Source of the DNA: Eledone cirrhosa
Lineage: Eukaryota
Assembly: GCA_964016885.1 (NCBI GenBank)
Contig: OZ024762.1
Span: 16,244,001 to 16,308,000 of the forward strand
Direction of reading: 5' to 3'
DNA length: 64,000 bases
This document shows, piece after piece, positions 38,723-59,644 of this stretch. Below the pieces are notes generated by a model. It saw nothing but the letters and a program-made list of their open reading frames with translations, was not told where the DNA came from and did no database searches. Numbering within the stretch: position 1 is the first letter of the stretch; each line of letters begins with the position of its first letter. Both the position numbers and the translations under genes were made by a program.

Positions 38723-38866
38723 ATATATATATATATATATATGTAGGAGGTGAGTTTTATTGTAGTACAATAAAGCAATGCAGATATCGGATAAGAAGCA
38801 CTCTACAGTTTGTGGGACTGGAGTATGCATAATATAAGATCAAAAGATGGTTAAAGGAGTTCAATA

Positions 38867-38937
38867 TATTTTATTATGCGCATTTCAAAAACAAACATCA
38901 TCAAACAATAATATTTGTGTTTTCATCAGATAAAACA
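38867..38937 (-). ncRNA. Type I hammerhead ribozyme (left arm of the giant palindrome)
   Basis: Reverse complement of 42184-42254. Confidence 0.85.
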
Positions 38938-40163
38938 GGAGAACATGATATGAAGGCTAAAAAAACACTTGTTGATAGTGCAGTTTTAAATCAACATATG
39001 AAAAGTGGTTTTAGATTGATGTGTGATATTGGGAAAAATATTTTATTTAGAGAGGGGGGGAGAGAAAAGGATGAAAAGGGAAGGAGATGAGAGGGAGAGA
39101 TGGGTGATAGAGAGAAAGAGATAGTTTTTATAACAGAGAGGAGATATATTTTATATAGAGGGGTTGAAAGCCGTTGGAAGATACTGTATAAATTAAAAAT
39201 TTTTGAAAATTAACGAAGGGAGGATATGTGCGAGGAAAAAATATATTATATTTAGGGAGGGGTGGGGGTGGAAAGGATGAAAAAAAGGGGAGGAGATGAG
39301 AGTGAAGGTGGAAAGGGAGAGATGGGTGATAGAGAGAAAGAGATAGTTTTTATAACTGAGAAAAAGATATAATGTTTTAATATAGAGAGGTTGGGAACCG
39401 TTGGAAGATAATGTATAAATTAAAGGAATTTGAAAATTAACGAAGGGAAATTATGTATGGAGATAGAGAGAAAAAAATAACGAAGGGAGATTATGTATGG
39501 AGATAGAGAGAAAAGAATAATAATTGTGGGTGAATATTCAAAAGGAGAAATGTAGGAATCTTAAAATTAGCAAAGAGAAAATGTTTATGTATAGGATTTG
39601 AGAAAAAATGTGAAGTTAAAGTTTTTATATTGAATTCATATGTATTAATAATGAGTTCGTTGATGGGGAGAAAAAAATAATAATAAAATTAAGGATGAAA
39701 TTGAGATTAAAAAGATTTATGATAGAGAGAAAAAATAATAATGATTGCGGATGAATACTCAAAATGTCAAAAACAAATGTTATTGTTTTACGAAGAGATG
39801 TAATGAGGGTGATGAGTAAACGGGTATTATAGAGTGTATAATGCCCTTTAAAGTAAGGTAGATGGGTATATTTTAAAGAATATATGAGTATATATTAAAA
39901 AAAATATATAATAATAAATTAAGGATGAAATTGAGATTAAAAAGATTTATGATAGAGGGAAAAAAAATAATGATTGCGGATGAATATTCAAAATGTCAAA
40001 AACAAATGTTATTGTTTTACGAGAAGATAGGATGAGGTAAATGAATAAACGAGTACTATAGAGTGTATAATGCCCTTTAAAGTAAGGTAGATGGGTATAT
40101 TTTAAAGAGGTGTATGTATATGTGCCTTTGAGAAAAGATTCTAAATTGATAAAGAATTGAATA

Positions 40164-40559
40164 TTAACTGTATACTTTGTGAAAAGTTCTATGGAATTTA
40201 TGGAGGCAGATGGAAAACAAATCCGAGCGTCTATTTATTATGGATTCTAGGTTAGAGATAATGGTAAATTTTTCATTTAGGCAGAGATTACAGATTTTAG
40301 ATAGAGAACTGTTCAAGTACGAGGATGCAGAAGAAATCTTTTTCCAAAAGATGTTATATTTAATGTTTTTGTCTTTTAAGGACCATATGAGTTCTGAGAG
40401 AGCAGTGTTAGTTCTTTTAAGTTTGTATTTGAAAGATGAATGATGATTATAGAGACGAGCTTTAAAAGAGGTGGAAGTGGAGCCAAAATAGGTGAAGGAG
40501 TTGGTGCTAGTTATAATTTTACATTCATAAATTAAGTTTTTATCGAGGCAATGGTTGTT
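40164..40559 (-). pseudogene. GIY-YIG endonuclease C-terminal fragment (mirror copy)
   Basis: Reverse complement of 40562-40957. Confidence 0.85.
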
Positions 40560-40561
40560 TC

Positions 40562-40957
40562 AACAACCATTGCCTCGATAAAAACTTAATTTATGAATGT
40601 AAAATTATAACTAGCACCAACTCCTTCACCTATTTTGGCTCCACTTCCACCTCTTTTAAAGCTCGTCTCTATAATCATCATTCATCTTTCAAATACAAAC
40701 TTAAAAGAACTAACACTGCTCTCTCAGAACTCATATGGTCCTTAAAAGACAAAAACATTAAATATAACATCTTTTGGAAAAAGATTTCTTCTGCATCCTC
40801 GTACTTGAACAGTTCTCTATCTAAAATCTGTAATCTCTGCCTAAATGAAAAATTTACCATTATCTCTAACCTAGAATCCATAATAAATAGACGCTCGGAT
40901 TTGTTTTCCATCTGCCTCCATAAATTCCATAGAACTTTTCACAAAGTATACAGTTAA
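40562..40957 (+). pseudogene. Penelope-like GIY-YIG endonuclease C-terminal fragment, 131 aa open frame with no start codon
   Basis: NNHCLDKNLIYECKIITSTNSFTYFGSTSTSFKARLYNHHSSF...TALSELIWSLK...CNLCLNEK...NRRSDLFSICLH...* (LIY..YFG, R..H, E, N pattern). Confidence 0.85.
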
Positions 40958-42183
40958 TATTCAATTCTTTATCAATTTAGAATCTTTTCTCAAAGGCACA
41001 TATACATACACCTCTTTAAAATATACCCATCTACCTTACTTTAAAGGGCATTATACACTCTATAGTACTCGTTTATTCATTTACCTCATCCTATCTTCTC
41101 GTAAAACAATAACATTTGTTTTTGACATTTTGAATATTCATCCGCAATCATTATTTTTTTTCCCTCTATCATAAATCTTTTTAATCTCAATTTCATCCTT
41201 AATTTATTATTATATATTTTTTTTAATATATACTCATATATTCTTTAAAATATACCCATCTACCTTACTTTAAAGGGCATTATACACTCTATAATACCCG
41301 TTTACTCATCACCCTCATTACATCTCTTCGTAAAACAATAACATTTGTTTTTGACATTTTGAGTATTCATCCGCAATCATTATTATTTTTTCTCTCTATC
41401 ATAAATCTTTTTAATCTCAATTTCATCCTTAATTTTATTATTATTTTTTTCTCCCCATCAACGAACTCATTATTAATACATATGAATTCAATATAAAAAC
41501 TTTAACTTCACATTTTTTCTCAAATCCTATACATAAACATTTTCTCTTTGCTAATTTTAAGATTCCTACATTTCTCCTTTTGAATATTCACCCACAATTA
41601 TTATTCTTTTCTCTCTATCTCCATACATAATCTCCCTTCGTTATTTTTTTCTCTCTATCTCCATACATAATTTCCCTTCGTTAATTTTCAAATTCCTTTA
41701 ATTTATACATTATCTTCCAACGGTTCCCAACCTCTCTATATTAAAACATTATATCTTTTTCTCAGTTATAAAAACTATCTCTTTCTCTCTATCACCCATC
41801 TCTCCCTTTCCACCTTCACTCTCATCTCCTCCCCTTTTTTTCATCCTTTCCACCCCCACCCCTCCCTAAATATAATATATTTTTTCCTCGCACATATCCT
41901 CCCTTCGTTAATTTTCAAAAATTTTTAATTTATACAGTATCTTCCAACGGCTTTCAACCCCTCTATATAAAATATATCTCCTCTCTGTTATAAAAACTAT
42001 CTCTTTCTCTCTATCACCCATCTCTCCCTCTCATCTCCTTCCCTTTTCATCCTTTTCTCTCCCCCCCTCTCTAAATAAAATATTTTTCCCAATATCACAC
42101 ATCAATCTAAAACCACTTTTCATATGTTGATTTAAAACTGCACTATCAACAAGTGTTTTTTTAGCCTTCATATCATGTTCTCC

Positions 42184-42254
42184 TGTTTTATCTGATGAAA
42201 ACACAAATATTATTGTTTGATGATGTTTGTTTTTGAAATGCGCATAATAAAATA
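42184..42254 (+). ncRNA. Type I hammerhead ribozyme (right arm of the giant palindrome)
   Basis: TGTTTTAT-CTGATGA(42192)-long stem II-GAAA-TGCGCA-TA^ATAAAATA; predicted cleavage after 42246. Confidence 0.85.
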
Positions 42255-42284
42255 TATTGAACTCCTTTAACCATCTTTTGATCT

Positions 42285-42317
<33 letters not shown>

Positions 42318-42367
42318 GCATTGGAAGTGTGGAATGTATAAAAAGAAGAAAAGTCGAATGAAGGTAC

Positions 42368-42499
42368 TTGTTTGAAGTCCTGTTTCTTGTTATCCAGTGG
42401 AACTACTGAGGCATCTTGACAAGCGAGGACATCTCGAAGTAATTGGAGGGATTCTTTTAAGGAGGACGTAGGGCCAAGATCTGGTGGTGGTAGTTCTAC
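42368..42499 (-). CDS. COG6: COG6 exon 14 ([44 protein letters not shown])
   Basis: cag/gtacct boundaries, homology. Confidence 0.96.
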
Positions 42500-42519
42500 C
42501 TGAAATATATAGATGGTTA

Positions 42520-43510
42520 GATTAGTGGTGGTGGTGGTGGTGGTGGTGTTGTGTAGGTGGTGGTGGTGGTAGTGTTGTGTAGGTGGTGGTGGTGGTGTGG
42601 GGTGGTGGTGGTGGTGGTGGTGTTGTGTTGGTAGTGGTGGTGTTGAGGTGGTAGTTGTGGTGGTGTGGTGGTAGTGGTCTTGAGGTGGTAGTGGTGGTGG
42701 TGTGGTAGTGGTGGTAGTGTTGTGTTGGTATTGGTGGTGGTGTAGTGGTAGTGTGGTGGTGGTGGTGGTATGGTGGTAGTGTGGTGGTGGTATGGTGGTA
42801 GTGTGGTGGTGATAGTGGTGGTGTTGAGGTGGTAGTTCTACCTGAAATATTTACATAGATGGTTAGAGTAGTGGTGGTAGTAGTATAGTGGAGGTGGTAG
42901 TTCTACCTAAAATATATAGATGGTTAGATTAGTGATGGTGGTGTTGCGGTTGTGGTGGTAGTGGTGTTATTGAGGTGGTAGTTATGTGGTAGTGTTGTAG
43001 TGGTGTTGGTAGTGGTGCTGGCTCTACCTGAAACATTATACAGGTGGTTATAGTAGTTGGTAGTGGTTGCTGTGGTGGTGTTATAGTGATGGTGGTGGTG
43101 GTGGTGGTAGTGGTGTTATAGTGATGGTGGTGGTGGTGGTGTTATGGTGGTGGTGGTGGTGTTATAGTGATGGTGGTGGTAGTGGTGTTATGGTGATGGT
43201 GGTGGTGGTGGTGGTGGTGGTGTTATAGTGATGGTGGTGTTATGGTGGTGGTGGTGATGGTGGTAGTGTTATAGTGGTGATGGTGGTGGTGGTGGTGGTG
43301 TTATAGTGATGGTGGTGTTATAGTGGTGATGGTGGTGGTGGTGTTATAGTGATGGTGGTGGTGGTGTTATAGTGGTGGTGGTGTTATAGTGATGATGGTG
43401 GTGTTAGTGGTGATGGTGGTATAGTGGTGGTGATGGTGGTAGTGTTATAGTGGTGATGGTGGTAGTGTTATTGTATTGGAGGATGATGTTGTGGTGGCAG
43501 TAGTATGGTT
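42520..43510. repeat. (GGT)n-rich degenerate tract containing duplicated splice acceptors
   Basis: Seen directly. Confidence 0.92.
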
Positions 43511-43604
43511 ATGTCAGCATGTGATGATATTAAATAACAACTGAGTGTGACAACAACAACAACAACAACAACAACAACTCCCTCCTTCCTCGACAGTAAG
43601 TTAC

Positions 43605-43719
43605 CTTGTCCAGAAGTTTACTGGCGTGACAGTTTAAACTGTTAAAGAAGATCTGGTGACTAAGAACTGCCATTTCTTCGACAGTTATAGTCAATGAAGC
43701 TGAATCTCCAAGAATATGC
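43605..43719 (-). CDS. COG6: COG6 exon 13 (HILGDSASLTITVEEM...SKLLDK)
   Basis: cag/gtaact boundaries, homology. Confidence 0.96.
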
Positions 43720-43756
43720 CTGAAAAAGAAGAAAAATATCACACAAGAAAACATTA

Positions 43757-44400
43757 TTAGTGGATTGGCAGTATCGGTGGAGGGTCGGACGCCATGCTTT
43801 GACGCATAGAGTTACGGCCCTTGCCATTCTGAGTTCAAATCCAACCAAGGTTAACTTTGCCTTTCATCCTTACGGGGTTGATAAAATAAAGTACCAGTAA
43901 TGTACTGGGTAATTTCTGGCCTTGTGCCAATAGTAGAAACAATTATTATTTACCATAACCCATGCTAGCGTGGAAGATGGACGTTAAACGATGATGATGA
44001 TGATGATGGTGGTGGTGGATTGGCAGTATCAGTAGAGGGTCGGACGCCATGCTTTCCAGCAAAGAGTTACGGCCCTTGCCATTCTGAGTTCAAATCCCGC
44101 CGAGGTTAACTTTGCCTTTCATCCTTACGGGGGTCGATAAAATAAAGTACCAGTAATACACTGGGATAATAGCTGGCCTTGTGCCAAAAGTAGAAACAAT
44201 TATTTACCATAACCCATGCTAGCGTGGAAGATGGATGTTAAACGATGATGATGATGATGATGGTGGTGGATTGGCAGTATCGGTAGAGTTACGGCCCTCT
44301 ATGGTCTGAGTTCAAATCCCGGGGTCGATAAAATAAAGTACCAGTAATGCACTGGGGCAATTGCTGGCCTTATGCCAAAAGTAGAAACAATTATTATTTA
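43757..44400 (+). mobile_element. Tandem triplication of a SINE plus LINE-tail unit (~250 bp)
   Basis: gtggattggcagtatc...gtagaaacaattat...catgctagcgtggaagatgga(c/t)gttaaacgatgatg repeated. Confidence 0.85.
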
Positions 44401-44691
44401 CCATATATGGTCATGTGTAAGATGACCAATAAATGACAAAACAATAAATTGATAATAATGGAGTGTTGGCTAAAATGTTCTGTTTCTCCTCCTCCTCCTC
44501 CCACTTATTCTTGAGAGGGTTGTGAGGGGGTAGAGCCCTCAAACACTCCTTCTAACGAGTCCTGTCAGAAGCAACCATTTCCAATTGATCCAGCTGGATC
44601 TTCAAGCGAGACCAACCAAGCTTATGGATGTTAATCAACCATCTTGCTCGGAGTGTACACCTGGGTCTCCAGCCAAGGATCCTATCCTTAA

Positions 44692-45916
44692 CCCTTTAGC
44701 ATTTACATTACCCTATATATACTATTGTATTTTCACTGTAAAGGCTTTACTTCACATAACATTTACATTACCCTATATATACTATTGTATTTTCACAGTA
44801 AAGGCTTTACCTCACATAACATTTACATTACCCTATATATACTATTGTATTTTCACTGTAAAGGCTTTACTTCACATAATATCTCACATAACATTTACAT
44901 TACTCTCTATATACTATTGTATTTTCACAATAAAGGCTTTACCTCACATAATATCTCACATAACATTTACATTACCCTATATATACTATTGTATTTTCAC
45001 TGTAAAGGCTTTACTTCACATAATATCTCACATAACATTTACATTACTCTCTATATACTATTGTATTTTCACAATAAAGGCTTTACCTCACATAATATCT
45101 CACATAACATTTACATTACTCTATATATACTATTGTATTTTCACAGTAAAGGCTTTACCTCACATAATATCTCACATAACATTTACATTACTCTCTATAT
45201 ACTATTGTATTTTCACAATAAAGGCTTTACCTCACATACTATCTCACATAACATTTACATTACTCTATATATACTATTGTATTTTCACAGTAAAGGCTTT
45301 ACCTCACATAATATCTCACATAACATTTACATTACTCTATATATACTATTGTATTTTCACAGTAAAGGCTTTACCTCACATAACATTTACATTACTCTAT
45401 ATATACTATTGTATTTTCACAGTAAAGGCTTTACCTCACATAACATTTACATTACTCTATATATACTATTGTATTTTCATGGTAAAGGCTTTACCTCACA
45501 TAACATTTACATTACTCTATATATACTATTGTATTTTCATGGTAAAGGCTTTACCTCGCATAATATCTCATAACATTTACATTACTCTATATATACTATT
45601 GTATTTTCACAGTAAAGGCTTTACCTCACATAACATTTACATTACTCTATATATACTATTGTATTTTCATGGTAAAGGCTTTACCTCACATAATATCTCA
45701 TAACATTTACATTACTCTATATATACTATTGTATTTTCATGGTAAAGGCTTTACCTCACATAATTATCTCTCATAATATCAAATCTATGAGATTTTGATA
45801 TTCTTTATTTTGAGAACAATACCTTAACATCAGTATGAGTGGCTGGTTACACCTGGTTTTAACAGAAAGAGGTGAGAGAATGCTGGCTGGATACGGCCAG
45901 TTTAAATGCTAAAGGG
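44692..45916 (+). mobile_element. piggyBac-like MITE carrying an internal 60/72-bp tandem array
   Basis: TTAA-CCCTTTAGCATTT ... AAATGCTAAAGGG-TTAA; array ~44700-45775. Confidence 0.85.
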
Positions 45917-46017
45917 TTAAAATGGTCTTCTTTATAGATTTGAGGCCAGATTTGACTGGGCTGGTATGAAAGGGTTAGAAAAATAAATAAATTAAAAATA
46001 CAAAAATCAATACTGAC

Positions 46018-46109
46018 CTTACAGTGTTGTGATAAAACTTCAACAAGTTATTTAGTTTATTTAACACAACAGCATCTTGTTCAGCTGCTAATACTTGGTC
46101 AACACGTAC
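46018..46109 (-). CDS. COG6: COG6 exon 12 (VRVDQVLAAEQDAVVLNKLNNLLKFYHNTV)
   Basis: cag/gtcagt boundaries, homology. Confidence 0.96.
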
Positions 46110-46341
46110 CTGAGGTGAAAGATAACAGGTAGATAATGAAGGAGATTTTATATATATATCAAGAACAATCGACTTTCCAATCTATTGTAAAACTCATTCT
46201 TTGATGTATTCATTGAACCTTGTTTAACTCTTAAATATATATATATATATATATATAAAAGGTAAACAGAAATAACAACACAATCGGTACAGTATATGGA
46301 AGGAATATATTAGTATAACGCTTGAAATAGCAGGAAGAGAG

Positions 46342-46377
46342 TCTTAACGTTTCGGATGGTAGTCCTTCATCAGAAGA
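46342..46377 (-). ncRNA. Minimal type I hammerhead ribozyme (family E) in a (TA)n-flanked insert ~46257-46570
   Basis: TCTT-CTGATGA-A-GGA-CTACCA-TCC-GAAACGTT^AAGA. Confidence 0.75.
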
Positions 46378-46625
46378 AAGAATGAGAAATTAGAAAGATT
46401 GAAGGGACGGGCGGGGCGGAATTGGCGTTTCAGAATGTAATGGAGCTGGCGGAGAAAAGAATTGAGATTGGGTATGGTGAAGGTACTGGGGTGAGAGAGA
46501 AATAGACAGGTGAAAAGAAGGTGGAAGTAAGAAGAGTATAATGGAGGAAAAGTGATAGAGCAGCGGGATACATATATATATATACACAATATATATATAT
46601 ATATATATAGGCACATGGCTTGAAT

Positions 46626-46935
46626 GGAGGCACATGGCTTAGTGGTTAGAGCATTGGCCTTCAGACCGGGTGATGTGTTGTTTCCTTGAGCAAGACACTT
46701 TATTTCACATTGCTCCAGTTTACTCAGCTGTAGAAATGAGATGACAGGGACTGGGGTCCCTATCATTCCATTGTAAAGTGGACGTGGAGGCGCCACGGCA
46801 AAAAAGCACCCAGCACTCACTGTAAATGAGGTTGGTGTTAGGAAGGGCATCCAGCTGTAGAAATCAAGCCAGAATCAGTGACCATCCCACCCTTGCAAGC
46901 AGGGAAAAGCGGACGTAAAATGATGATGATGATGA
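46626..46935 (+). mobile_element. tRNA-derived SINE with RTE-derived tail
   Basis: Copy of 20757-21095 with a deletion in the head. Confidence 0.88.
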
Positions 46936-46953
46936 TATATATATAAATATATT

Positions 46954-47054
46954 TAGGAAAAGAGTCAGGACCCCGACGGCTGAGCTCTGACCGTTTCGAC
47001 AGCTAGGTCTGAAACGGCTGGAGCTCAGCCGTCGGGGTCCAGACTCTTTTCCTA
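46954..47054. repeat. Fold-back palindrome (family D) containing the 3' half of a hammerhead
   Basis: ~44-bp arms; GAAA-CGGCTGGAGCTCAGCCG-TC; related copy at 59446-59549. Confidence 0.8.
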
Positions 47055-47260
47055 TTACCCACTCTACTACCCTAAGTATTGAGTACTCTTGTGTGTTATA
47101 GTCCATCTGTTATCTTACCACACCCTCATTGTTATATATACACATATATATATATATCACGATAAATTAACGGAGCCATAGACTCTCGTTATTCCCTGTC
47201 AATAATGTGCTCAAAGGAAAAGGAATGCTGAGCTCTTTAAAATACAATATTGTATAACAT

Positions 47261-47325
<65 letters not shown>

Positions 47326-47402
47326 ATAAATATGAAGACTAAAATCCAAAGAGGGCTCGATAAGGATAAATATATATCAAATATATAAGAACCGTAGAGC
47401 AA

Positions 47403-47553
47403 ATATTTATTAAAATAACAGATTAAAGTTTATGCAAAGAATCGCTGCTTTCACCCTTAACGGGATCTATTTTATCTGAGTTTCAGAAGATCCCGTGAAG
47501 GGTGAAAGCAGCGATTCTTTGCTTAAACTTTAATCTGTTATTTTAATAAATAT
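47403..47553. repeat. Fold-back palindrome (family B), 66-bp arms
   Basis: 47403-47468 pairs with 47488-47553. Confidence 0.9.
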
Positions 47554-47568
47554 ATATATATATATATA

Positions 47569-47920
47569 TTAACTTCAACAGTACGTCCTCATCAGATAAA
47601 ATAAGATGATGCATGACATACCCTGACTAAGTAGGTGGTTAAGATTCAGTCATGACTACCATGACTGAATCTTAACCATCTACTATGTCAGAGTATGTCA
47701 TGCATCATCTTATTTTATCTGATGAGGACGTACTGTTGAAGTTAACTCAGTACCTCTGAAATATGTATAATAAAATATACTTGATCACAAGAATATCTAT
47801 TTTGTTAATATTTTGAATTAATATTAATAACTCTGGAAAACCATATCTGTTGAGCAATTCCAATCTATTGTAAAACTCATTCTTTGATTTATTCATTGAA
47901 CCTTGTTTAACCTTTAAATA
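47569..47920 (+). mobile_element. Fold-back element (family A): arms 47569-47654 / 47660-47745 plus a tail ending in (TA)n
   Basis: Inverted repeat with loop ACTAC; same family as 54445-54880 and fragment 46175-46235. Confidence 0.85.
47711..47777 (+). ncRNA. Type I hammerhead ribozyme (family A)
   Basis: TATTTTAT-CTGATGA-GGACGTACTG..CAGTACCTCT-GAAA-TATGTA-TA^ATAAAATA. Confidence 0.8.
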
Positions 47921-48002
47921 TATATATATATATATAAAGAGAGAGAGAGAAAGATCTAACATCATAGGAAAAGTAAAGAAATATAAGGGAGAGAATATTT
48001 AC

Positions 48003-48067
48003 CTTAAATGGACGACAGACACCTTCGGTAATATGTCCCAGAATTTTCTGGATTAATTCTGAGTCAG
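48003..48067 (-). CDS. COG6: COG6 exon 11 (DSELIQKILGHITEGVCRPFK)
   Basis: tag/gtaaat boundaries, homology. Confidence 0.96.
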
Positions 48068-48853
48068 CTAAAATGGGAGGAAAAAAAAATCATGTATAAT
48101 TATATAGCCAATATTGGATGTACGTATAGATGTACATATATATTTAGGTGCGTGTACTACTACTACTACTACTACTATCACTATTACTACTACTACTACT
48201 ACTATTATTACTACTACTACTACTTGAGTTCAAATCCCGCCGAGGTTGACTTTGCCTTTCATCCTTACGGGGTCGATAAAAATAAAGTACCAGTAATGCG
48301 CTGGGTAATTGCTGGCCTTGTGCTTAAAGTAGAAACAATTATTACTACTACTACTACTATCACTACTACTACTACTAGTACAACCACTACTACTACTACT
48401 ACTACTACTACCACAACCACTACTACTACCACAACCACTACTACTACTACTATTACTACTACTATGTTGTCATCGTTTAACGTCCATCTTCCACGCTAGC
48501 ATAGGTTTAGACGGGAATTGTCCCGCTTGAGACAAGGTTGGTCGGGTGACCATGTCTCGCTCGTATAGGACTGTCTGGCAGGTTTTCTACGGCTGGATGC
48601 CCTTCCTAACACCAACCACCTTTACAGCGTGGACTGGGAGCCTTTTTACCGTGTTACCTACACGGCCACATTACAGCATGGACTGGGAGGTTTTTACCGT
48701 GTTACCTACACGGCCACATTACAGCGTGGACTGGGAGCCTTTTTACCGTGTTACCTACACGGCTACATTATTATTGTCTGTAATCCAGAAACCTTTGGTA
48801 ATGGAGTAGTTATATTTTGTGTTCACTTTCTAATGTATATATATAAGACTTAC

Positions 48854-48991
48854 ATTTGCAAGATTTAATCAATGTTTGCAGATATTCCTTCTCAGACGCT
48901 GCAGCTTGGTGTAACCATGCCAACATATCTCCAACGTAACGCAGAGGATCATGGGAGTGTAATTCTATAGGGCGGGGGGTGCCACCAGGAC
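48854..48991 (-). CDS. COG6: COG6 exon 10 ([45 protein letters not shown])
   Basis: cag/gtaagt boundaries, strong homology. Confidence 0.97.
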
Positions 48992-49079
48992 CTGAATGGG
49001 GAGAGAAACATAAAAAAAAAAGTCAGTTGAGCACACATTGCATTTTCGCATGGGTTCTACAGATGGGTACACTTCCTAA

Positions 49080-49877: not shown

Positions 49878-49954
49878 CTCCTCGGGTCAACGCATCTATC
49901 AGTCCTCGGACAATAGCTGTACGTCGAGCTGTGCCATATTCATCGAGGGAGTAA
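49878..49954 (-). CDS. COG6: COG6 exon 9 ([25 protein letters not shown])
   Basis: cag/gttagt boundaries, homology. Confidence 0.96.
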
Positions 49955-49999
49955 CTGTAAAGTAAACATAGTGTCATATGTAACAACAGGGTTACTGGA

Positions 50000-50585
50000 G
50001 AGAGGGGTGGGGGTTATAGGGTGAGAGAGAATGAGAGTGAGAGAGAGGGTGAGAGAGAGAGTGAAAGAGAGGGTGAGTTAGTGAGTGAGAGTGAGAGAGA
50101 GGAGGGGTGAGAGAGGATGAGTGGGGTGAGAGGGAGAGAAAGAGGGGGTGAGAGTGAGAGAGAGCAAGAGAGGGTGAGAGAGAGAGTGAAAGAGAGGGGC
50201 ATGAGAGAGGGTGAGTGTGAAAGAGAGGGGCATGAGAGAGGGTGAGTGAGAGAGAGGCGGTGAGATAGGGTGAGAGTGAGAGAGAGAGGAGGGGTGAGAG
50301 AGGATGAGTGGGGTGAGGGGGAGAGAAAGAGGGGGTGAGAGTGAGAGAGAACGAGAGAGAGAGTGAAAGAGAGGGGCATGAGAGAGGGTGAGTGAGAGAG
50401 AGGCGGTGAGATAGGGTGAGTTAGAGAGTGAGAGTGAGAGAGAGGAGGGGTGAGAGAGGATGAGTGGGGTGAGGGGGAGAGAAAGAGGGGGTGAGAGGGT
50501 GAGAGAGAAAGAGTATAACAATGTTACATGTAACAATAACTGGAGAGAGGGAAGAGAGAGAGTGAGGGATAGAGAGAGAGAGTAT
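50000..50585. repeat. GA-rich low-complexity tract with internal duplications
   Basis: Seen directly. Confidence 0.9.
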
Positions 50586-50614
50586 AACAATGCTACATGA
50601 CAGTATGTCCTTAC

Positions 50615-50708
50615 TTCAGCAACAATGGTCGGTCCTGGAGAGCTTCCATGGCAGAACAAAGAAGGGGGAAGATATCAGGAGAATCTCCAGTGAGGGAGCG
50701 GCATTCAT
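50615..50708 (-). CDS. COG6: COG6 exon 8 (ECRSLTGDSPDIFPLLCSAMEALQDRPLLL)
   Basis: cag/gtaagg boundaries, homology. Confidence 0.96.
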
Positions 50709-50786
50709 CTGGAAAAGGAACAAGTCACTGAATTATATTGACACACGCACACACACACAGATATCATCATCATCATCATCATCATC

Positions 50787-52112
50787 TGGGCATGCCAACA
50801 AAGTCAGAAAACAGCACAGCTCCCATGACTTTTGGAAACATTTTTTCACGCTCAGAGTTGCTGAAGCATGGAACAAACTACCTGCATCAGTTGTTAGCTG
50901 TCGAGACACTGCATCCTTTAAAACCTCCATGGAACAAACTACCTGCATCAGTTGTTAGCTGTCGTGACACTGCATCCTTTAAAACCTCCATGGAACAAAC
51001 TACCTGCATCAGTTATTAGCTGTCGAGACACTGCATCCTTTAAAACTTCCATGGAACAAACTACCTGCATCAGTTGTTAGCTGTCGAGACACTGCATCCT
51101 TTAAAACCTCCATGGAACAAACTACTTGCATCAGTTGTTAGCTGTCGAGACACTGCATCCTTTAAAACCTCCATGTAACAAACTACCTGCATCAGTTGTT
51201 AGTTGTCGAGACACTGCATCCTTTAAAACCTCCATGTAACAAACTACTTGCATCAGTTGTTAGCTGTCGAGACACTGCATCCTTTAAAACCTCCATGGAA
51301 CAAACTACTTGCATCAGTTGTTAGCTGTCGAGACACTGCATCCTTTAAAACCTCCATGGAACAAACTACTTGCATCAGTTGTTAGCTGTCGAGACACTGC
51401 ATCCTTTAAAACCTCCATGTAACAAACTACCTGCATCAGTTGTTAGTTGTCGAGACACTGCATCCTTTAAAACCTCCATGTAACAAACTACCTGCATCAG
51501 TTGTTAGTTGTCGAGACACTGCATCCTTTAAAACCTCCATGTAACAAACTACTTGCATCAGTTGTTAGCTTTCGAGACACTGCATCCTTTAAAACCTCCA
51601 TGGAACAAACTACCTGCATCAGTTATTAGCTGTCGAGACACTGCATCCTTTAAAACCTCCATGGAACAAACTACTTGCATCAGTTGTTAGCTGTCGAGAC
51701 ACTGCATCCTTTAAAACCTCCATGTAACAAACTACCTGCATCAGTTGTTAGTTGTCGAGACACTGCATCCTTTAAAACCTCCATGTAACAAACTACCTGC
51801 ATCAGTTGTTAGTTGTCGAGACACTGCATCCTTTAAAACCTCCATGTAACAAACTACTTGCATCAGTTGTTAGCTGTCGAGACACTGCATCCTTTAAAAC
51901 CTCCATGTAACAAACTACTTGCATCAGTTGTTAGCTGTCGAGACACTGCATCCTTTAAAACCTCCATGGGACAAACTACCTGCATCAGTTGTTAGCTGTT
52001 GAGATACTACATCCTTTAAAACCTCCATGGAACAAACTACATGCATCAGTTGTTAGCTGTCGAGACACTGCATCCTTTAAAACCTCCATGCTTCCTGAGA
52101 TTCGCCAACACT
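50787..52112 (+). repeat. CR1/L2-type LINE 3' fragment with a 59-bp segment expanded to ~21 tandem copies (50867-52090)
   Basis: KHFFTLRVAEAWNKLPASVVSCRDTASFKTSM; unit bounded by CATG. Confidence 0.88.
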
Positions 52113-52452
52113 TGTGGTTGTGTAGGTGACACAATAAAAAGCACCCAGTCCACAAATAGTTTTATACAACAACACCAACAAGAGCAGCAGCAACAACAGC
52201 ACCACCACCACCACTACAACAGCCCCACAACAACACCACCACCACCATCACCACTACAACACCACCACCACCATCACCACTACAACACCACCACCACCAC
52301 CACCACTACAACACCACCACCACCACAACACCACCATACCACCACTACTACAACACCACCACCACCACCACCACAACAGCACCACCACCACTACCACCAC
52401 TACACCACCACCATTACAACAACAACACCAACAAGAACTACAGTCAACTTAC

Positions 52453-52523
52453 TCTGTGTCCAACGGTAAAGTCTTTCATAAGCTGATTCTTGTTGTAGAG
52501 CCATAGATTCCATTATTTCCAGC
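52453..52523 (-). CDS. COG6: COG6 exon 7 (LEIMESMALQQESAYERLYRWTQ)
   Basis: cag/gtaagt boundaries, homology. Confidence 0.96.
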
Positions 52524-52845
52524 CTGGAGAACAATCAGAATTAATCATGTTATTCTTTATATGAAAACATTTCTATTTGGTTAAACATACAAAAAAAGAA
52601 AGTAGCATTAGTAAGGACTATAAATGCCATAAATGAGAGGAAAGAAAGGGGAAGGGTAAGGACTACTAGTCAAAGGGAGAGGATGACAGACTCTACACTT
52701 AGGTCGGAGTGGTGTTTCGATTGTGCCTTGCGGATTAAATGACAAAGACATTTCCGTGGACAGAAAAAGGTGAGAGAATTCTGGCTGGTTGTGGCCGGTT
52801 TAAATGCTAAAGGATTAAGGTAACATAATCCTGGTTATTTTTATT

Positions 52846-53108
52846 CAGAGAAGACTGCGATGGTATGGACATGTGATGCATATGGAGGATGACCGCTGGG
52901 TAAAGAAGTGCCAAGAAATCCCAGCAGAAGGAAGACACAGTAGAGGTAGACCACGAAAAACATGGGCGGAGGTGGTGAGAGCAGACGTCAGATTGCTGAA
53001 GCTCATGGAGGAGATGACGAAGGACCGTGATAATGGAGAGATGCTGTGCTGAATAGGACCCGTCCCACCCTTGCAAGCAGGGAAAAGCGGACGTAAAATG
53101 ATGATGAT
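52846..53108 (+). mobile_element. RTE LINE (family 1) complete 3' end
   Basis: RRLRWYGHV...RGRPRKTW then cccgtcccacccttgcaagcagggaaaagcggacgtaaaatgatgatg. Confidence 0.88.
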
Positions 53109-53267
53109 ATATATATATATATATCCAGTAAGGTTGCTATCCCTGTTACGAAGGGTACCCAGCCATAGAAAACCAAGCCAAACATGGAGTATATGAGCAT
53201 GATAATGGTGATGATGATGATGATTTATCCTGTAATCTGTTTTAACAAGAAACTGTGCTATATTTAC

Positions 53268-53350
53268 CCTGCTGTCTGTTGGTTGGTACGCAGGAGTACT
53301 TTGCAGTCGGTGTGGATCTGTTTCACCCGTGATAACACTTTGAAGAAATC
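53268..53350 (-). CDS. COG6: COG6 exon 6 ([27 protein letters not shown])
   Basis: cag/gtaaat boundaries, homology. Confidence 0.96.
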
Positions 53351-54008
53351 CTGAAATGGTAATTTGACATAGTTCATACAACAACAACACCAACAACCAT
53401 GACGGAATCTTGTATATACTAGCTTATAAGATGACCTTTTGACCTTAATTAAAACTTTTACTACCAACTTTGGTTTCATGCTACAAAACTGCAGTGTTAT
53501 TTGCAGAATCAGGAGAGCGTCGGACAAGATGCTTTGCAGCATATATATTTACAGTCCTTTACCTTCTGGGTTCAAATCCCGCCAAAGTTAGCTTTGCCTT
53601 TCATCCTTACGGGGACGATAAAATAAAATACCAGTAATGCACTGGGGTTGATTTAATCGACTTTCTCCTTCGCTGCAAAATTGCTAGCCCTGTGCCCATT
53701 GTAGAAACAATCAACATTTACATTACTCTATATATACTTGTGTGTTTTCATGGTAAAGAACCACTGGACAGATTTTACGGGTAAAACCAACTTGCAGGAG
53801 ACCCAGGGGTAGACCCCGAGCAAGATGGTTGGATAACATCCATGAGCTTGGCTGGTCTCGCTTGGGGATCCAACTGGATCAGTTAGAGACGGTTGCTTCT
53901 GAGAGGAACCGCTGGAAGGAGTGTTTGAGGACTCTGCCTCCTACGACCCTCTCAGGAATAGGTGGGCGAAGAAGATCATTGAAGAAAACCAAGAACAAAT
54001 GGTATTAC

Positions 54009-54120
54009 CTTGTGTAAACCTGTGGTTTTGGAACCACGCAGGACTTTACATTCCTCAGGTTTCAGTTGAAATTTATCCAAAAAAGCATCAGCAACTTGGC
54101 CTTTCATTTGTAATTTTTGG
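54009..54120 (-). CDS. COG6: COG6 exon 5 (QKLQMKGQVADAFLDKFQLKPEECKVLRGSKTTGLHK)
   Basis: tag/gtaata boundaries, homology. Confidence 0.96.
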
Positions 54121-54444
54121 CTAAATTAGGGGACAATAAAAAAAATCAAATAATGATTAAAACAGTTATAAACAACATTTTAAAACAAATAATTAAAAAA
54201 CAAAACAAAACTGTCAACTTTTTGAATATAAAACATGTTTACATGAGGAGTCAGTTGTAGAAACCAAGCAAGATTTAGTTCTGTATGAGCAAGGCATGGT
54301 CAACTAATCTGACTTGTCTCACAACGGCACAACTTGTCTAACCCATGATAGCATGGAAAATGCGTGCTTTTTGTCGTGACTCCTACATGACCACTTTACA
54401 GTGGGGGCTGGAGTCTTCACTGGATATTTATATATATATTATAT

Positions 54445-54880
54445 ATATATTTAAAGGTTAAACAAGGTTCTACGAATAAATCAAAGAATAAAGTTTTACA
54501 ATAGATTGGAAGCACTCCACAGTAATGGTTTTCTGGAGTTATTAATATTAATTCAAAATATTAACAAAAATAGACATTCGTGTGGTCAAATATATTTTAT
54601 ACATATTTCAGAGGTACTGAGCTATCTTCAACAGTACGTCCTCATCAGATAAAATAAGATGATGCATGACATACCCTGACTAAGTAGATGGTTAAGATTC
54701 AGTCATGACTGCCATGACTGAATCTTAACCATCTATTTAGTCAGGGTATGTCATGCATCATCTTATTTTATCTGATGAGGACGTACTGTTGAAGATAGCT
54801 CAGTACCTCTGAAATATGTATAATAAAATATACTTGATCACACGAATGTCTATTTTTGTTAATATTTTGAATTAATATAT
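54445..54880. mobile_element. Fold-back element (family A): left arm to 54707, loop ACTGC, right arm 54713-54878, (TA)n on both sides
   Basis: Reverse-complementary arms; same axis as the 47569-47745 copy. Confidence 0.88.
54764..54830 (+). ncRNA. Type I hammerhead ribozyme (family A); the minus-strand mirror at ~54593-54656 lacks 3 nt at the cleavage site
   Basis: CTGATGA 54772-54778, GAAA 54811-54814, TATGTA-TA^ATAAAATA. Confidence 0.8.
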
Positions 54881-55166
54881 TATATATATATATATATATA
54901 GATACATATATATATGTAGATAGATACATATCATCATCATCATAATTTTATGGTCTGTTTTCCTGTTTTCCCTGCTGGCGAGAGCTGTAGAAATTGTCAT
55001 GTTCTGAGACTAGACAAGTCTGAGAACTACACCTAGCTTCTAGATCACATTTTACCATAGTTTCTACAGCTGGATGCCATTACTATTGCCAGCCAATTTA
55101 CAGGGTGAACCGGGTGCATTTTATTGTGGCATCAACACTGGAGAAAGAGAGAGAGAACGTACTAAC

Positions 55167-55225
55167 CTTTCACCTTGCAGTCCTGTAGTTTGGTTCAAAA
55201 GATCTCGAGTTTGTTCTTTTGCAGT
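55167..55225 (-). CDS. COG6: COG6 exon 4 (TAKEQTRDLLNQTTGLQGE)
   Basis: tag/gttagt boundaries, homology. Confidence 0.95.
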
Positions 55226-55319
55226 CTAGAATTAAGATGAAGGAAACATTTAAATATTAAATTAACAAAGAATTTTGAATTTATTACTGACAACATTAAT
55301 TATTACATTATTAAGACAG

Positions 55320-56155
55320 TCCACCCTGTAAAGTGGTTGTGTTGGTGACATGACAAAAAGCACCCAGTACACACTGTAAAGTGGTTGTGTTGGTGACATG
55401 ACAAAAAGCATCCAGTACACACTGTAAAGTGGTTGTGTTCGTGACATGACAAAAAGCATCCAGTACACATTGTAAAGTGGTTGTGTTGGTGACATGACAA
55501 ATAGCACCCGGTACACACTGTAAAGTGGTTGTGTTGGTGACATGACAAAAAGCACCCGGTACACACTGTAAAGTGGTTGTGTTGGTGACATGACAAAAAG
55601 CACCACCCAGTACACATTGTAAAGTGGTTGTGTTGGTGACATGACAAAAAGCACTCAGTACACACTCTAAAGTGGTTGTGTTGGCGACATGACAAAAAGC
55701 ACCCAGTACACACTGTAAAGTGGTGGTGTTGGTGACATGACAAAAAGCACCCAGTACACACTGTAAAATGGTTGTGTTGGTGACATGACAAAAAGCACCC
55801 AGTACACACTGTAAAGTGGTTGTGTTGGTGACATGACAAAAAGCACCCAGTACACACTGTAAAGTGGTGGTGTTGGTGACATGACAAAAAGCACCCAGTA
55901 CACTGTAAAGTGGTGGTGTTGGTGACATGACAAAAAGCACCCAGTACACACTGTAAAGTGGTGGTGTTGGTGACATGACAAAAAGCACCCAGTACACACT
56001 GTAAAGTGGTTGTGTTGGTGACATGACAAAAAGCACCCAGTACACACTGTAAAATGGTTGTGTTGGTGACATGACAAAAAGCACCCAGTACACACTGTAA
56101 AGTGGTTGTGTTGGTGACATGACAAAAAGCACCCAGTACACACTGTAAAGTGGTG
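55320..56155. repeat. 46-bp minisatellite (~18 copies), SINE-derived, inverted relative to 49080-49515
   Basis: Unit gtaaagtggttgtgttggtgacatgacaaaaagcacccagtacacact. Confidence 0.93.
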
Positions 56156-56290
56156 GTGGTAGTAGTGTTATTAATGATGGTGGTAGTGGTGAGTGGTGGT
56201 GGTAGTAGTGTTATTAATGATGGTGGTAGTGGTGAGTGATGATGGCAGTGAAGGTGATGACAATGATGGTGATGGTATATTTCTACCTAC

Positions 56291-56362
56291 CTTTAGTCTG
56301 TTGGTCATGTCCTGGCAACACTCATTCATACCCTTTACCTCGAGGTAGACGCTGTTCAGTTG
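56291..56362 (-). CDS. COG6: COG6 exon 3 (QLNSVYLEVKGMNECCQDMTNRLK)
   Basis: cag/gtaggt boundaries, homology. Confidence 0.96.
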
Positions 56363-57226
56363 CTGTGTAACAAACAATACAGAAATGTTTATATAAGTAC
56401 AGACACGGCTGTATGGTTAACATCTTTGTTTGCCAACAATGTGGATCTGGGTTCAACCCCACTGTGTGTGTATATATAAATATACATATATATATACACA
56501 CACACACACTACCTCCCCTCCTCCCCTTTCTTCCCGTTTGACCTGTCCATAATCCTTTTCTCGCGGGCACTTGGCCAAGCCGGTATGAATTTTTTTTCTC
56601 TCTCTCTCTCTCGTCTGCGACTTCACAGAACTTTATGTTTACTGAATTCGCAGGCCAGACCCCTTCTTCCTCCCGTTAGACCTGTGCGAAATTCCTTCCT
56701 TGCTCACATTTCAACCAGGTTTGATAGTCTTTATTCTCTCGTTCACGATTCCACCGAATTTATATTCATAGAAATCTGGGACTTGTTTCCTTCTTCATCA
56801 CTTTCTGCTGCTTAAACCATTTTGTTCGTTCACCCTAGCGTCCCCCTTATTTACGTGTCCCAACGACTTTTTTTTAGCCGTTGCTCGCACCAACCTGAGG
56901 TATATGGCCTTTAATGCGACGAAATGCCTACGACGGTTGGATGGCCACTGATGAGGACAAACTTTTTCATATATATATATACATGTATGTAAAAGGTAAA
57001 CAGAAATAACAACACAATCGGTATATATACATCATCATCATCAAGGTTTAGCGTCCGTGTTCCACGCTTGCATGGGTTTGGACGGGGGTTTTCCCACTTG
57101 AGGCAAGAGTGGTTGTCTTGCTCGCATATATATATATATTTATTTGCTCTATGGTTCTTATATATTTGATATATATTTATCCTTATCGAGCCCTCTTTGG
57201 ATTTTAGTCTTCAAATTTATTATTAT

Positions 57227-57262
<36 letters not shown>

Positions 57263-57357
57263 GTAGAACACTGGAAGGTAATATCCGTAGTGGTAGAGTA
57301 CTCAGTCCATGGGACGAGTTAGGTAAAAGTGGTTACACAACAGTTAGTTCACCATAC

Positions 57358-57395
57358 CGAGAACAATTGTTTCACCTAGGCGGATCCTCAGCTCG
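57358..57395 (-). ncRNA. Minimal type I hammerhead (family C, left arm)
   Basis: CGAG-CTGAGGA-TCCGCCTAGGT-GAAA-CAATTG-TT^CTCG. Confidence 0.7.
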
Positions 57396-57398
57396 TTA

Positions 57399-57436
57399 CG
57401 AGCTGAGGATCCGCTAAGGTGAAACATTTGTTCTCG
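57399..57436 (+). ncRNA. Minimal type I hammerhead (family C, right arm)
   Basis: CGAG-CTGAGGA-TCCGCTAAGGT-GAAA-CATTTG-TT^CTCG. Confidence 0.7.
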
Positions 57437-58063
57437 GTATGGTGAACTAACTGTTGTGTAACCACTTCTATATATATATATATATATAAGAGAGAGTGAG
57501 AGAAAGGAAATGAGAAAGAGATATAGAGGAAGAATCGACCCCAGTACTAGACTGGTACTTTTTTAATCGACCTCAAATAGATGAAAGGCAAAGTTGACCT
57601 CGGTAACAAAGGGGAAGTTGGCCCTCACAACAGCATAACATTCACCTCAGTGAACAATTAAATTTACTTTCAAATTTTTATTTATTTACAAACTATATAA
57701 ATGCCCAAGTTTTTCATTGCTAAAGGGGACAGAAAATAAAAAGGGGCAAATGAAATAAGGATCAAGCAAGGAAGGGAGAGAGACAAGGACAGTGACAAGA
57801 CCCTAATTTGGGAGGTGCCTCAGCCGCGCCCCGCTGACAAAACGGCAAAAACGTTGCCGCGGAGAATGGCCAGAGACACCCGCGGCAACAACAACCTCCA
57901 CTTCATGGGGTTTCCTCCTCATCATCAAGAGGGGGAGGGGGTCACCGTCTTTCCGACTTTGGGAGGTGGGGAGGCCAGAGGTCTCCACAGAGACCCGGTA
58001 CAAAAAAGAGGAATCGGTCATTGGTCAGGCCCCGGTTATTTAACTATCATTATCTTCATTGAG

Positions 58064-58251
58064 AGGCGGTGGATTGGCAGTATCGGTAGAGGGTTTGACG
58101 CGATACTTTGACGTATAGAGTTACGGCCCTTGCCATTCTGAGTTCAAATCCCGCCTAGGTTAACTTTGCCTTTCATCCATACGAGGTCGATAAAATAAAG
58201 TACCAGTAATAAACTGGTATAATTCCTGGCCTTGTGCCAAACGTAGAAACA
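58064..58251 (+). mobile_element. SINE with 15-bp target-site duplication
   Basis: attatcttcattgag at 58049-58063 and 58252-58266. Confidence 0.9.
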
Positions 58252-58392
58252 ATTATCTTCATTGAGGGGCGGCGGAGCTCGGATTTGTGACCGAAAATAA
58301 CACAGTTGGAGGCCGAGAGCGAGCTGCCACTTGCACGCCGCGTCCCAAAATAAGAATTTGAAAGTTGAAAACAACAAAACAACCGAACTTAC

Positions 58393-58536
58393 TTCTTCAA
58401 CGACATTAAAAGCCTCAACGAATTCTTCGTTTATCGACAAATTCCTTCTTTCGATGTCACTTCGCAGGTTTCGACGAGTCCGGAGGCTATTTTCAACAAA
58501 AAATGTCGACAAAGCTTTCAAAGCTTCCAGCATCTC
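58393..58536 (-). CDS. COG6: COG6 exon 2 ([48 protein letters not shown])
   Basis: cag/gtaagt boundaries, strong homology. Confidence 0.97.
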
Positions 58537-58720
58537 CTGGGAAAAAACGAAGCTTCTCTGTATGTATTTATTATTTTAGAATAAATTTACATTAACCCTT
58601 TCCTTACCAAAACAAACTGAAACCGCCCACGGTTCTACGATATAAAACTGGTTTATATTTATCTAAAAAAAAATGTGTACACACACACATGTATGTATGT
58701 ATGTATGTATATATATATAT

Positions 58721-59288
58721 ACAACCTGTCTCATGGTCGGGTCATTGGCGACTAAACTGGCAACCCCACCAAGGTTTCTTGGTGAGGAGGGTGACTTTGG
58801 ACATCCTGCAGGATTAAAAACAAAACCTGTCAAAGGGCCAAGGAGCTCTTAAGAGTCAATGGCCATCCAAAATCACCGGGAGAGATGACCCCTTAGCCTT
58901 TGTCAAGGCAGAATTCTAGGAGAAGGAAAACTCTGATATAACACCTGCAGCCCCGATGGTATCCAATGATGTTGACTTGTTCTTCTTTTTGGTAAATATC
59001 ATCTTGGTTAAGAGAGTGGGACTGGCTTTGTGCAGTGCCTTTGCTCACTATAAAAGCTTCACGGCACAGGCATTGCTTTATATCTGGAGATCTCTCTGCA
59101 CTTGTTGTCACATGGTACCATGGGCCCAGCACTATGTGTCAATAATTGTCACAAGTGTAGTGTTTGTACCAGAGTTTTCTAGTCACTGGCTGGACTAAAA
59201 AGTCACACTCGTTCAGCGCATCGGTAGGGGTTCTCCTACATGGATATAAAGTAGTGGCCGTACTCGAAAACGAGTTGGCAGCCACCAT
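58721..59288 (+). mobile_element. Dispersed ~550-bp repeat, copy 2
   Basis: Reverse complement of 18744-19298; (TA)n-flanked. Confidence 0.65.
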
Positions 59289-59415
59289 ATATATATATAC
59301 AGTCTTTCGTCACTTTAAAAAATATCTTCACGCACAGGCATTGCACGATAGAATTAATTAATTATTATTAATAATGGTATATCGTGCAATGGCCATACTT
59401 GATAACGAGGGGGCA

Positions 59416-59445
<30 letters not shown>

Positions 59446-59446
<1 letters not shown>

Positions 59447-59549
59447 AAGAGTCAGAATCCCGACGGCTGAGCTCCGGCCGTTTCGACAGCTAGATCCGGA
59501 TCTAGCTGTCGAAACGGCCGGAGCTCAGCCGTCGGGATCCTGACTCTTT
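59446..59549. repeat. Fold-back palindrome (family D), no loop, axis 59497/59498
   Basis: ...gacagctagatcc|ggatctagctgtc-GAAA-CGGCCGGAGCTCAGCCG-TC. Confidence 0.9.
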
Positions 59550-59644
59550 TCCTATTACCCACTCTACTATCCTAAGTACTCTGGTTGGATATGGTCCACC
59601 TGGTATCTTACCCACCTTCTCTGTTGTATGTATGTGTGTGTATG

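Follow-up and report, generated by a model that had tools for sequence, protein, structure and literature searches.

Penelope-like elements (PLEs) of the Hydra clade are recognised, in the parts of their description drawn on here (Craig et al. 2021, PMC8557442), by a C-terminal endonuclease (EN), the motif DKT, an RWx/RWK-type motif and a CxCx5C linker, with no CCHH, and the supplement to that paper adds (TA)n targets, hammerhead ribozymes, a Hydra family of Octopus bimaculoides and, for Penelope-13_HM, a copy that is truncated and inverted. Here we analyse a 64,000-nucleotide stretch of the Eledone cirrhosa genome, referred to throughout as the window (positions 16244001-16308000 of contig OZ024762.1 in the 3.0-Gb assembly), in which introns of COG6 hold seven palindromes, numbered P1 to P7 in coordinate order. 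Judged from their sequence, the seven are 5'-truncated 3' ends, joined head to head, of five Hydra-clade PLE families (that of P2 and P7 through a sister subfamily), and they likely arose as the element's reverse transcriptase (RT)-EN cut a (TA)n tract and primed both target strands on the same RNA.

In the twin priming of long interspersed nuclear element 1 (LINE-1), both target strands prime complementary DNA (cDNA) on one RNA and the products join head to head by microhomology, yielding an inversion without duplication and with a variable second start. In the palindromes described here, by contrast, the second start is fixed and the arms are usually duplicated.

Insertions of EN+ Penelope elements (Arkhipova et al. 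2013, PMC3846280) resemble ours in being head-to-head, with a palindrome at the junction, a one-sided tail on the inverted pseudo-long terminal repeat (pLTR) and microhomology at the joins; passages of that paper favour self-priming on an antisense template, whereas the arm lengths reported below argue for two primings, and target-site duplications (TSDs), unlike there, are unreadable in the (TA)n tracts here. Poseidon PAc of Anolis cleaves the two strands and extends them in vitro, uses two internal RT starts that delimit the tail, requires an RNA element 3' of these starts and was modelled as a dimer (Frangieh et al. 2024, PMC11167929); we draw the parallel in each of these respects, but PAc belongs to another clade, and inverted copies are not ascribed to paired starts in the sections of that study used here. 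Passages on minimal hammerheads found in metazoan PLEs (Cervera and de la Pena 2014, PMC4209133) and on non-LTR retrozymes (bioRxiv 10.64898/2026.07.22.740005) likewise present type I motifs with a palindromic helix III, opposite-strand pairs 100-700 bp apart, the U3-A8 variant and a proposed circular template, the last put forward for PLEs in PMC4209133; P1-P7, in contrast, are no tandem non-coding units but the truncated ends of elements that encode protein.

With the published Hydra clade (parts of PMC8557442) the present elements share one open reading frame (ORF) joining RT to a C-terminal GIY-YIG domain, the (TA)n targets, the protein marks named above together with CxxC and CxH around the catalytic residues, type I hammerheads, many of which have U-U flanking helix II as in our families C and E, and, as in Penelope-13_HM, a 5'-truncated inverted copy. 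A tail hairpin described below is also visible in coral Hydra-2_Amil in the supplement. The same pages give elements generally under 3 kb, tails of 30-40 bp and canonical hammerhead cores, whereas here family A measures 3.9 kb, tails are 63-95 nt long, and families B and C have U3-A8 and U4A cores; the supplement's hammerhead of Hydra-1_Obim matches none of our five families, and copy numbers lie far above the comment of "4 copies" made for it.

Since inverted head-to-head copies, junction palindromes, the one-sided tail and opposite-strand hammerhead pairs are all published, the architecture itself is not new. An earlier note on this DNA had treated PLE hammerheads and an inverted 5'-truncated copy as established, and the literature bears this out, as it does the one-sided tail and the (TA)n target (passages of PMC3846280, PMC8557442, PMC4209133). 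Denoting by T an arm end at the tail end and by S a fixed arm end upstream of T, what we add is a strict T/S pairing, a symmetry of arm lengths (31 versus 31), a haplotype shared between arms and a hairpin behind 9 of 10 starts. No PLE paper explaining the structure by twin priming or paired starts was found in the literature searched, which covered few subscription papers, and the main text of the Octopus vulgaris repeat paper (PMC13282606), as far as it was available, has no mention of Hydra, palindrom or ribozyme.

Palindromes and element families

All seven palindromes were recovered where the earlier note had placed them (P2-P7 by self-BLAST), all in COG6 introns and all of one design: one arm only carries an unpaired tail, and (TA)n flanks the palindrome on either outer side, in short or interrupted tracts for P2 and P7. 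The arms of P1 (38824-40559 and 40562-42297) are 1736 nt each and 100% complementary around a 2-nt loop, and the self-identity of P2-P7 is 86-98%. For P5, previously placed at 54445-54878, the end holds but the start does not, as the palindrome begins at 54545 and 54445 takes in the tail. The insertions are as follows.

38743..40559, minus strand: family A, the P1 arm with the tail; it runs from the remnant of a GIY-YIG domain (40559-40164) through a long 3' untranslated region and a hammerhead, whose core begins at 38929 and whose cut is near 38875, to an 86-nt tail (38828-38743) and (TA)n
40560..42292, plus strand: family A, the short-ended arm of P1; remnant of GIY-YIG at 40562-40957 and a hammerhead that has its core at 42192-42238 and a palindromic helix III; the arm ends 86 nt short of the tail end, and (TA)n follows
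46954..47134, plus strand: P2, family B1; palindrome 46954-47054, tail to 47134; 3' half of a U3-A8-core hammerhead, turn within helix II
47321..47553, minus strand: family C (P3); the minus arm carries the tail, 47321-47402, next to palindrome 47403-47553, and the plus arm has a hammerhead of U4A core at 47484-47524
47569..47918, plus strand: P4, family D; palindrome 47569-47745; the plus arm crosses the hammerhead (47719-47769) and reaches the tail end at 47918, the minus arm has an atypical end within helix II
54450..54878, minus strand: P5, family D; tail 54450-54544 (minus arm), palindrome 54545-54878; hammerhead complete on the plus arm (54772-54822), minus-arm copy with a 3-nt deletion
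57259..57470, minus strand: family E (P6); the minus arm bears the tail (57259-57323) and a hammerhead (57391-57361); palindrome 57324-57470, whose plus arm has a nearly complete hammerhead
59446..59626, plus strand: P7, family B1, in COG6 intron 1; palindrome 59446-59549, tail to about 59626; half hammerhead

A GIY-YIG domain, with a Pfam match (E=0.0026) that falls short of the curated cut-off, is encoded in the centre of P1. This family A endonuclease is present in at least 150 genome copies identical in protein (150 of the 150 matches listed are at 100%), many of them as minus/plus pairs, and the family is young. Its full element is a tandem unit of 3893-3896 bp with an 821-codon open frame (800 aa from the methionine) for RT plus a GIY-YIG at the C-terminus; Pfam gave no RT match on the full protein, and the RT motifs were read from an alignment instead. 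Arms of the other families were searched in the genome, where the best 40 of 645-1857 candidates per search were scored and then extended. Family C has open frames of 709-710 codons in 2 of the 3 loci fetched, while D, E and B2, the sister subfamily of B1, carry RT/EN remnants with broken frames upstream of the ribozyme on the same strand, and in their tandem copies the ORF start directly follows the tail. B2 is about 80% identical to B1 at the 3' end and has its own RT/EN frame, and it is only through B2 that the family of P2 and P7 is tied to RT and GIY-YIG.

The proposal that these are (TA)n-targeted Penelope-like products is thus upheld by extension to RT and GIY-YIG in A, C, D, E and B2, and all 58 non-A pairs with one T and one S end have (TA)3 at one end at least (33 at both). 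As in EN+ Penelope-like elements, a single ORF combines RT and GIY-YIG, and tandem or partial tandem pLTRs, an inverted truncated copy and a one-sided tail are all present, with type I hammerheads in the pLTR that match our descriptor in A, D and E and in variant form in C (U4A) and B (U3-A8). Proteins of the other families are 37-54% identical to that of A, and the tails share a hairpin; the families, described earlier as unrelated, are so at the DNA level but not by descent. DKT replaces DKG in A, C and D, RWT is found in A and RWR in C and D, the K of the RWK-type motif not being kept; the CxCx5C linker, the lack of CCHH and the CxxC and CxH near the catalytic E and N are seen in A, C, B2 and D, and in E the linker. 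By these motif marks, and with published Hydra proteins compared by eye, we place the elements in the Hydra clade of C-terminal EN+ PLEs. A protein database search returned 21 relatives at 28-38% identity.

The earlier note also considered non-autonomous hairpin-ribozyme units. High copy number, and B1 junctions that are alike at several loci, might suggest that the short palindromes propagate themselves as such units or as DNA elements like miniature inverted-repeat transposable elements (MITEs), but we consider this very improbable: instead of the equal terminal inverted repeats and transposase partner of a transposon, the ends are unequal with a tail on one side only and the partner is an RT; no transposase was met in any family extension; the tandem units are coding elements of 2.5-3.9 kb rather than the non-coding, hammerhead-bearing units of retrozymes; and, among 69 pairs of B2, C, D and E, 68 have junction coordinates of their own (the lone repeat is one locus mirrored twice), with no amplified hairpin units seen. 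Because the junctions are distinct, each palindrome looks as if it was made at insertion.

Several further observations concern the families. Between the RT and the endonuclease linker, at about residues 570-660, the family A protein (read at L023:3339-5738) has an Asn/Thr-rich insert of about 70 aa, which is absent from family C and resembles the N-rich inserts of Adineta PLEs in passages of PMC3846280. A sixth Hydra-like family, near full length, with an RWK motif and 39% identity to A, lies on the minus strand at L228:4005-6307 and L229:4212-6323, and additional families are evident in a random genome sample. Family A words have a 41-45% share in sequencing runs of two other organisms and a lower share in those of more.

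Arm ends, junctions and a proposed paired priming

On natural reference copies, 106 loci or pairs were mapped, 37 of them of family A (chosen pairs and singles), the other 69 being the pairs of B2, C, D and E present in all loci fetched. A T end is paired with an S end in 85 of the 106, and in none do two S ends occur together; in 7 one of the arms finishes at some other point, among them P4, whose short arm stops inside the ribozyme and not at the usual S site of family D, and 13 could not be classified. The sole apparent T+T locus (L250) is explained by the internal tail of a tandem arm. S lies upstream of T by 86, 63, 87, 95 and 65 nt in A, B2, C, D and E, respectively, and adjacent 3'-end pairs are head-to-head in 89 cases and tail-to-tail in 6, duplicates included.

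Arm lengths are symmetric: of the 85 T+S pairs, 31 have an S arm that extends further 5', 31 a T arm that does so and 23 arms within 25 nt of each other, and either arm can be multimeric. This bears on a snap-back or self-priming origin, in which one cDNA, or an antisense transcript (as passages of PMC3846280 have it), would fold and be copied back, the tail resulting from endonuclease resolution. Tiny loops (2 nt in P1), the 23 of 85 symmetric junctions, the single haplotype shared by the arms and an excess of symmetry in family A would all agree with such an origin. Against it, the tail-less arm holds sequence missing from the tailed arm in 31 of 85 pairs (up to 2.5 units versus 36 nt, in A1), and simple snap-back cannot therefore be the source of these; nor can it be the sole route, given the 7 pairs whose arms do not overlap, and symmetric junctions in D, E, C and B1 are concentrated in natural inverted repeats, at which two ends of cDNA could pair. 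We regard snap-back as an unlikely general explanation, and the fold-back origin implied in the earlier note does not hold for pairs in which the tail-less arm is the longer.

In 5 of the 7 non-overlapping pairs the T arm stops 8 nt or less from S, as expected if it meets the second primer on the same RNA. Opposite arms are identical at 42 informative columns in 15 of 19 comparisons, versus 7.6% of 1460 between-locus pairs. Two independent RNAs, one per subunit, might also prime the two strands, with the arms alike through one active source locus or later homogenisation; the independence of arm lengths and the occurrence of overlapping arms, for which no strand displacement would then be needed, speak for this. 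At least 8 family A haplotype groups are, however, spread through the genome and no locus combines distant ones, and T arms that halt at S fit one shared molecule, so that two separate templates seem distinctly improbable.

A hairpin of the form RCTC...GAGY lies 2-8 nt behind S in 5 of 5 families and behind T in 4 (9 of 10 sites), and the one predicted for the T site of D was found before the ORF start in 12 of 12 loci read, with a search pattern that demanded its first four letters. The 85 junctions show microhomology of 2 nt or more in 42, blunt or 1-nt joins in 18 and inserted bases in 25, and B1 junctions recur at one natural hairpin.

These features point to a model in which the RT-endonuclease would cut the (TA)n tract and both nicked target strands would prime reverse transcription on one RNA, one starting at T and the other at S, 63-95 nt upstream. 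Each start would probably owe its position to protein binding at its own hairpin, which a dimer would permit. The two cDNAs would stop independently and likely be joined 3' to 3' via short complementary patches, often the ribozyme's own inverted repeats or palindromes of 4-6 nt, leaving tiny loops; arms exceeding one unit would require an uncleaved tandem transcript or a ribozyme-made circle. Priming of both strands on one RNA would explain why there is one tail, why arm lengths are independent, why T arms halt at S and why the arms share a haplotype, and the hammerhead would be present in the arms only because it sits 20-60 nt upstream of S.

A number of points weigh against this account. The loci mapped were top BLAST matches or hand-chosen pairs, not a random draw, and one family C pair was counted twice via a larger mirror (L212). 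In 4 of the 19 arm comparisons 1-3 informative sites differ, which favours two RNAs, and arm identity could instead reflect gene conversion, or a single source locus that supplied two RNAs. Inserted bases at 25 of 85 junctions are not explained by paired priming. Family A has more near-symmetric junctions than permutation predicts (4 of 27 within 45 nt versus 0.9, p=0.009), which suggests some true snap-back, though 3 of the 4 were hand-picked or are P1 itself. Family E is without the second hairpin, and at 7 B1 loci with a full ribozyme no ORF match was found within 1.5 kb. In Poseidon PAc, passages of PMC11167929 report that both strands share start-site choice in vitro, with no target homology, in contrast to the strict pairing of T and S and the two AT-rich ends observed here.

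Searches for further evidence at the insertion sites were negative: empty-site paralogs were sought for 87 insertions, of which 4 gave candidates and none a true empty site, the (TA)n hiding any TSDs; and in a random sample only a few 5' ends lie near the ribozyme cut site (C -116, -118; B2 -78, -81), from which we claim no pile-up. An assembly or library artefact from fold-back reads might be suspected from the 100% identity of the P1 arms and from the lack of any contig spanning the P1 junction in four public contig sets, an uninformative result, and P6 was spanned by no piece of one organism's public runs, where its family is very deep. The fixed asymmetric ends, differing flanks and mismatched arms in P2-P7, together with family E strand-switch joints of the same kind in public contigs, make an artefact hard to credit at all. 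The T/S pairing, arm-length symmetry and two hairpins make the origin of the inverted copy and of the one-sided tail directly testable, and families A and C offer young, intact proteins for mechanistic work.

Larger rearrangements were also encountered. L212:8844-9997, near 327.679 Mb on contig C1, holds a mirror that is 97% identical over 480 bp or more on each side, is centred on a B insertion and duplicates flanking repeats including a C pair, and L228 has a smaller mirror of E pairs; both suggest flank capture or secondary inversion. At L236:7210-7550 a family C copy joins the ORF start directly to the ribozyme through an internal deletion, with no sign of amplification.

Hammerheads, genome-wide frequency and the COG6 pre-mRNA

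The descriptor for type I hammerheads comprised helix I, core, helix II, GAAA, helix III and UH. The whole, half or degenerate motifs reported earlier for the arms proved complete on each arm of P1, on the plus arm in P4 and P5 and on the minus arm in P6 (on the P6 plus arm the motif just fails at helix I); P3 has the U4A core of its family on the plus arm, matched by a descriptor variant, and P2 and P7 keep only the 3' half, both palindromes turning inside helix II. The full family B ribozyme, with a U3-A8 core, long helix II and GUC site, was found at 7 other loci, and the predicted core is present in 7 of 9 pattern matches; readings of the family B GAAA as a hairpin loop, or of B as ribozyme-less, were dropped once this motif appeared. 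Of 75 motif reads of family C, 64 have the U4A core, and tandem copies whose frames are open are among them. Such a core fixed in a coding family was not found in the passages of PMC4209133 or bioRxiv 10.64898/2026.07.22.740005 available to us, and a literature search for this variant, together with passages of PMC3088659, turned up U4C, U3-A8 and U-U, but no U4A.

Rfam gave no match at the gathering score over 36000-64000, and at E<=10 no hammerhead family on the motifs of P1, P5 and P6, which counts against taking them as real ribozymes; a scan of the whole window by E-value was dominated by microsatellite matches. The minimal motifs of these families go unrecognised by Rfam, whose best matches are microRNA (miRNA) precursors, and in annotation the inserts resemble MITEs or miRNA hairpins.

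In 600 kb of random genome (60 stretches of 10 kb from 23 contigs) the descriptor found 42 canonical motifs, versus 1, 0, 0, 0 and 0 in five shuffles. Twelve of the 42 fall within fold-backs, which cover 2.9% of the sample, an enrichment of about tenfold; the genome-wide enrichment that the earlier note had set as a test is thereby borne out by the descriptor. Its second test, co-occurrence with (TA)n, gave the same answer, with (TA)3 at an outer end in 48 of the 68 fold-back candidates and at 13% per position in the background. The tail hairpin is found in 19 of the 68 (background 2.4%), and since the full signature, (TA)n at one end and the tail hairpin past the other, is seen in only 17, not all fold-backs are shown to be Hydra. 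Clusters like that in the window occur in L164, L179 and L212. As the design is found genome-wide, the window is an ordinary cluster, in part through nesting of P1 and P6 in (TA)n tracts of family C.

38588..38742, plus strand: truncated family C copy (family matched by eye) whose (TA)n tract received P1
57140..57258, plus strand: tail-only family C copy whose (TA)n tract received P6

The host gene runs on the minus strand and was delimited by Pfam and translation.

34599..61480, minus strand: portion of COG6 containing the palindromes
58393-58512, minus strand: COG6_N domain (Pfam)
52445-52522, 48864-48983, 45909-46112, 34599-34784 and 26321-26464, minus strand: COG6_C pieces (Pfam)
near 61370-61480, minus strand: COG6 exon 1 (translation)
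about 46015-46112 and about 42330-42500, minus strand: further COG6 exons (translation; other exons in between likewise read by translation), besides those at 58393-58512, 52445-52522, 48864-48983 and 34599-34784

The suggestion that the inserts load this pre-mRNA with both double-stranded RNA (dsRNA) and self-cleaving motifs survives in its first part only as a prediction from the sequence, of about 2.2 kbp of duplex in the arms. The second part is not supported. A complete motif on the COG6 strand is present in P1 and P6 only, and since it is at their 5' ends that the arms meet, transcription from either side passes through the antisense arm before the sense arm. In predicted folds the helix I pairing probability is 0 within the P4, P5 and P6 palindromes and full duplex is predicted for the ends of the P1 arms; monomer motifs on their own are likewise weak folders (about 0.03), which makes the comparison a modest one. 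The hammerheads in COG6 pre-mRNA are thus predicted to be zipped into dsRNA and masked, and the inserts are probably passive debris; nothing in the analysis shows an effect on COG6, though such inserts could furnish much intronic dsRNA.

A broader form of the model, which we offer tentatively as possible rather than probable, is that priming in Hydra PLEs is obligately paired. A dimer would read two conserved hairpins on one, possibly circular, RNA, with T used on one strand and S on the other, and nearly every insertion would be a head-to-head hairpin masking its own ribozyme in transcripts of the host. The process would have left in this genome some 2x10^5 hammerhead motifs and about as many fold-backs, by extrapolation of the 42 and 68 counted in 600 kb, and would be a main source of intronic dsRNA, and some families would thrive with non-canonical cores.

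Other features of the window

An eighth head-to-head pair, of family C, lies at 60200-60350 in COG6 intron 1, and its tailed arm halts at the S site. Elsewhere in the window, fold-backs at 8256-8321, 9978-10173, 14617-15067 and 22523-22794 have no hammerhead by the descriptor. A non-palindromic repeat between (TA)n tracts at 46225-46560 (minus strand), with copies at several random loci, holds a minimal hammerhead-like motif on the COG6 sense strand (core 46373-46350) with a 4-bp helix I, missed by the descriptor; it is probably another PLE 3' end, without a partner arm to mask its motif.

At 35589-38600 there is a LINE remnant encoding RT (RVT_1 and a PHD-like finger) with an inverted 5'-side segment whose arms are 82% identical; two hammerhead-like cores in it were rejected as chance matches within coding sequence. 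An exon of a leucine-rich-repeat gene (62935-63435, plus strand) stands head-to-head with COG6, about 1.5 kb from exon 1. A run of N occupies the window near 18500-18730, and 6 kb of TA/CA-type microsatellite and tandem arrays of 48-88-bp units are found at 1-6143, 15140-17715, 32965-34548, 44700-45776, 50867-52090 and 55317-56158.

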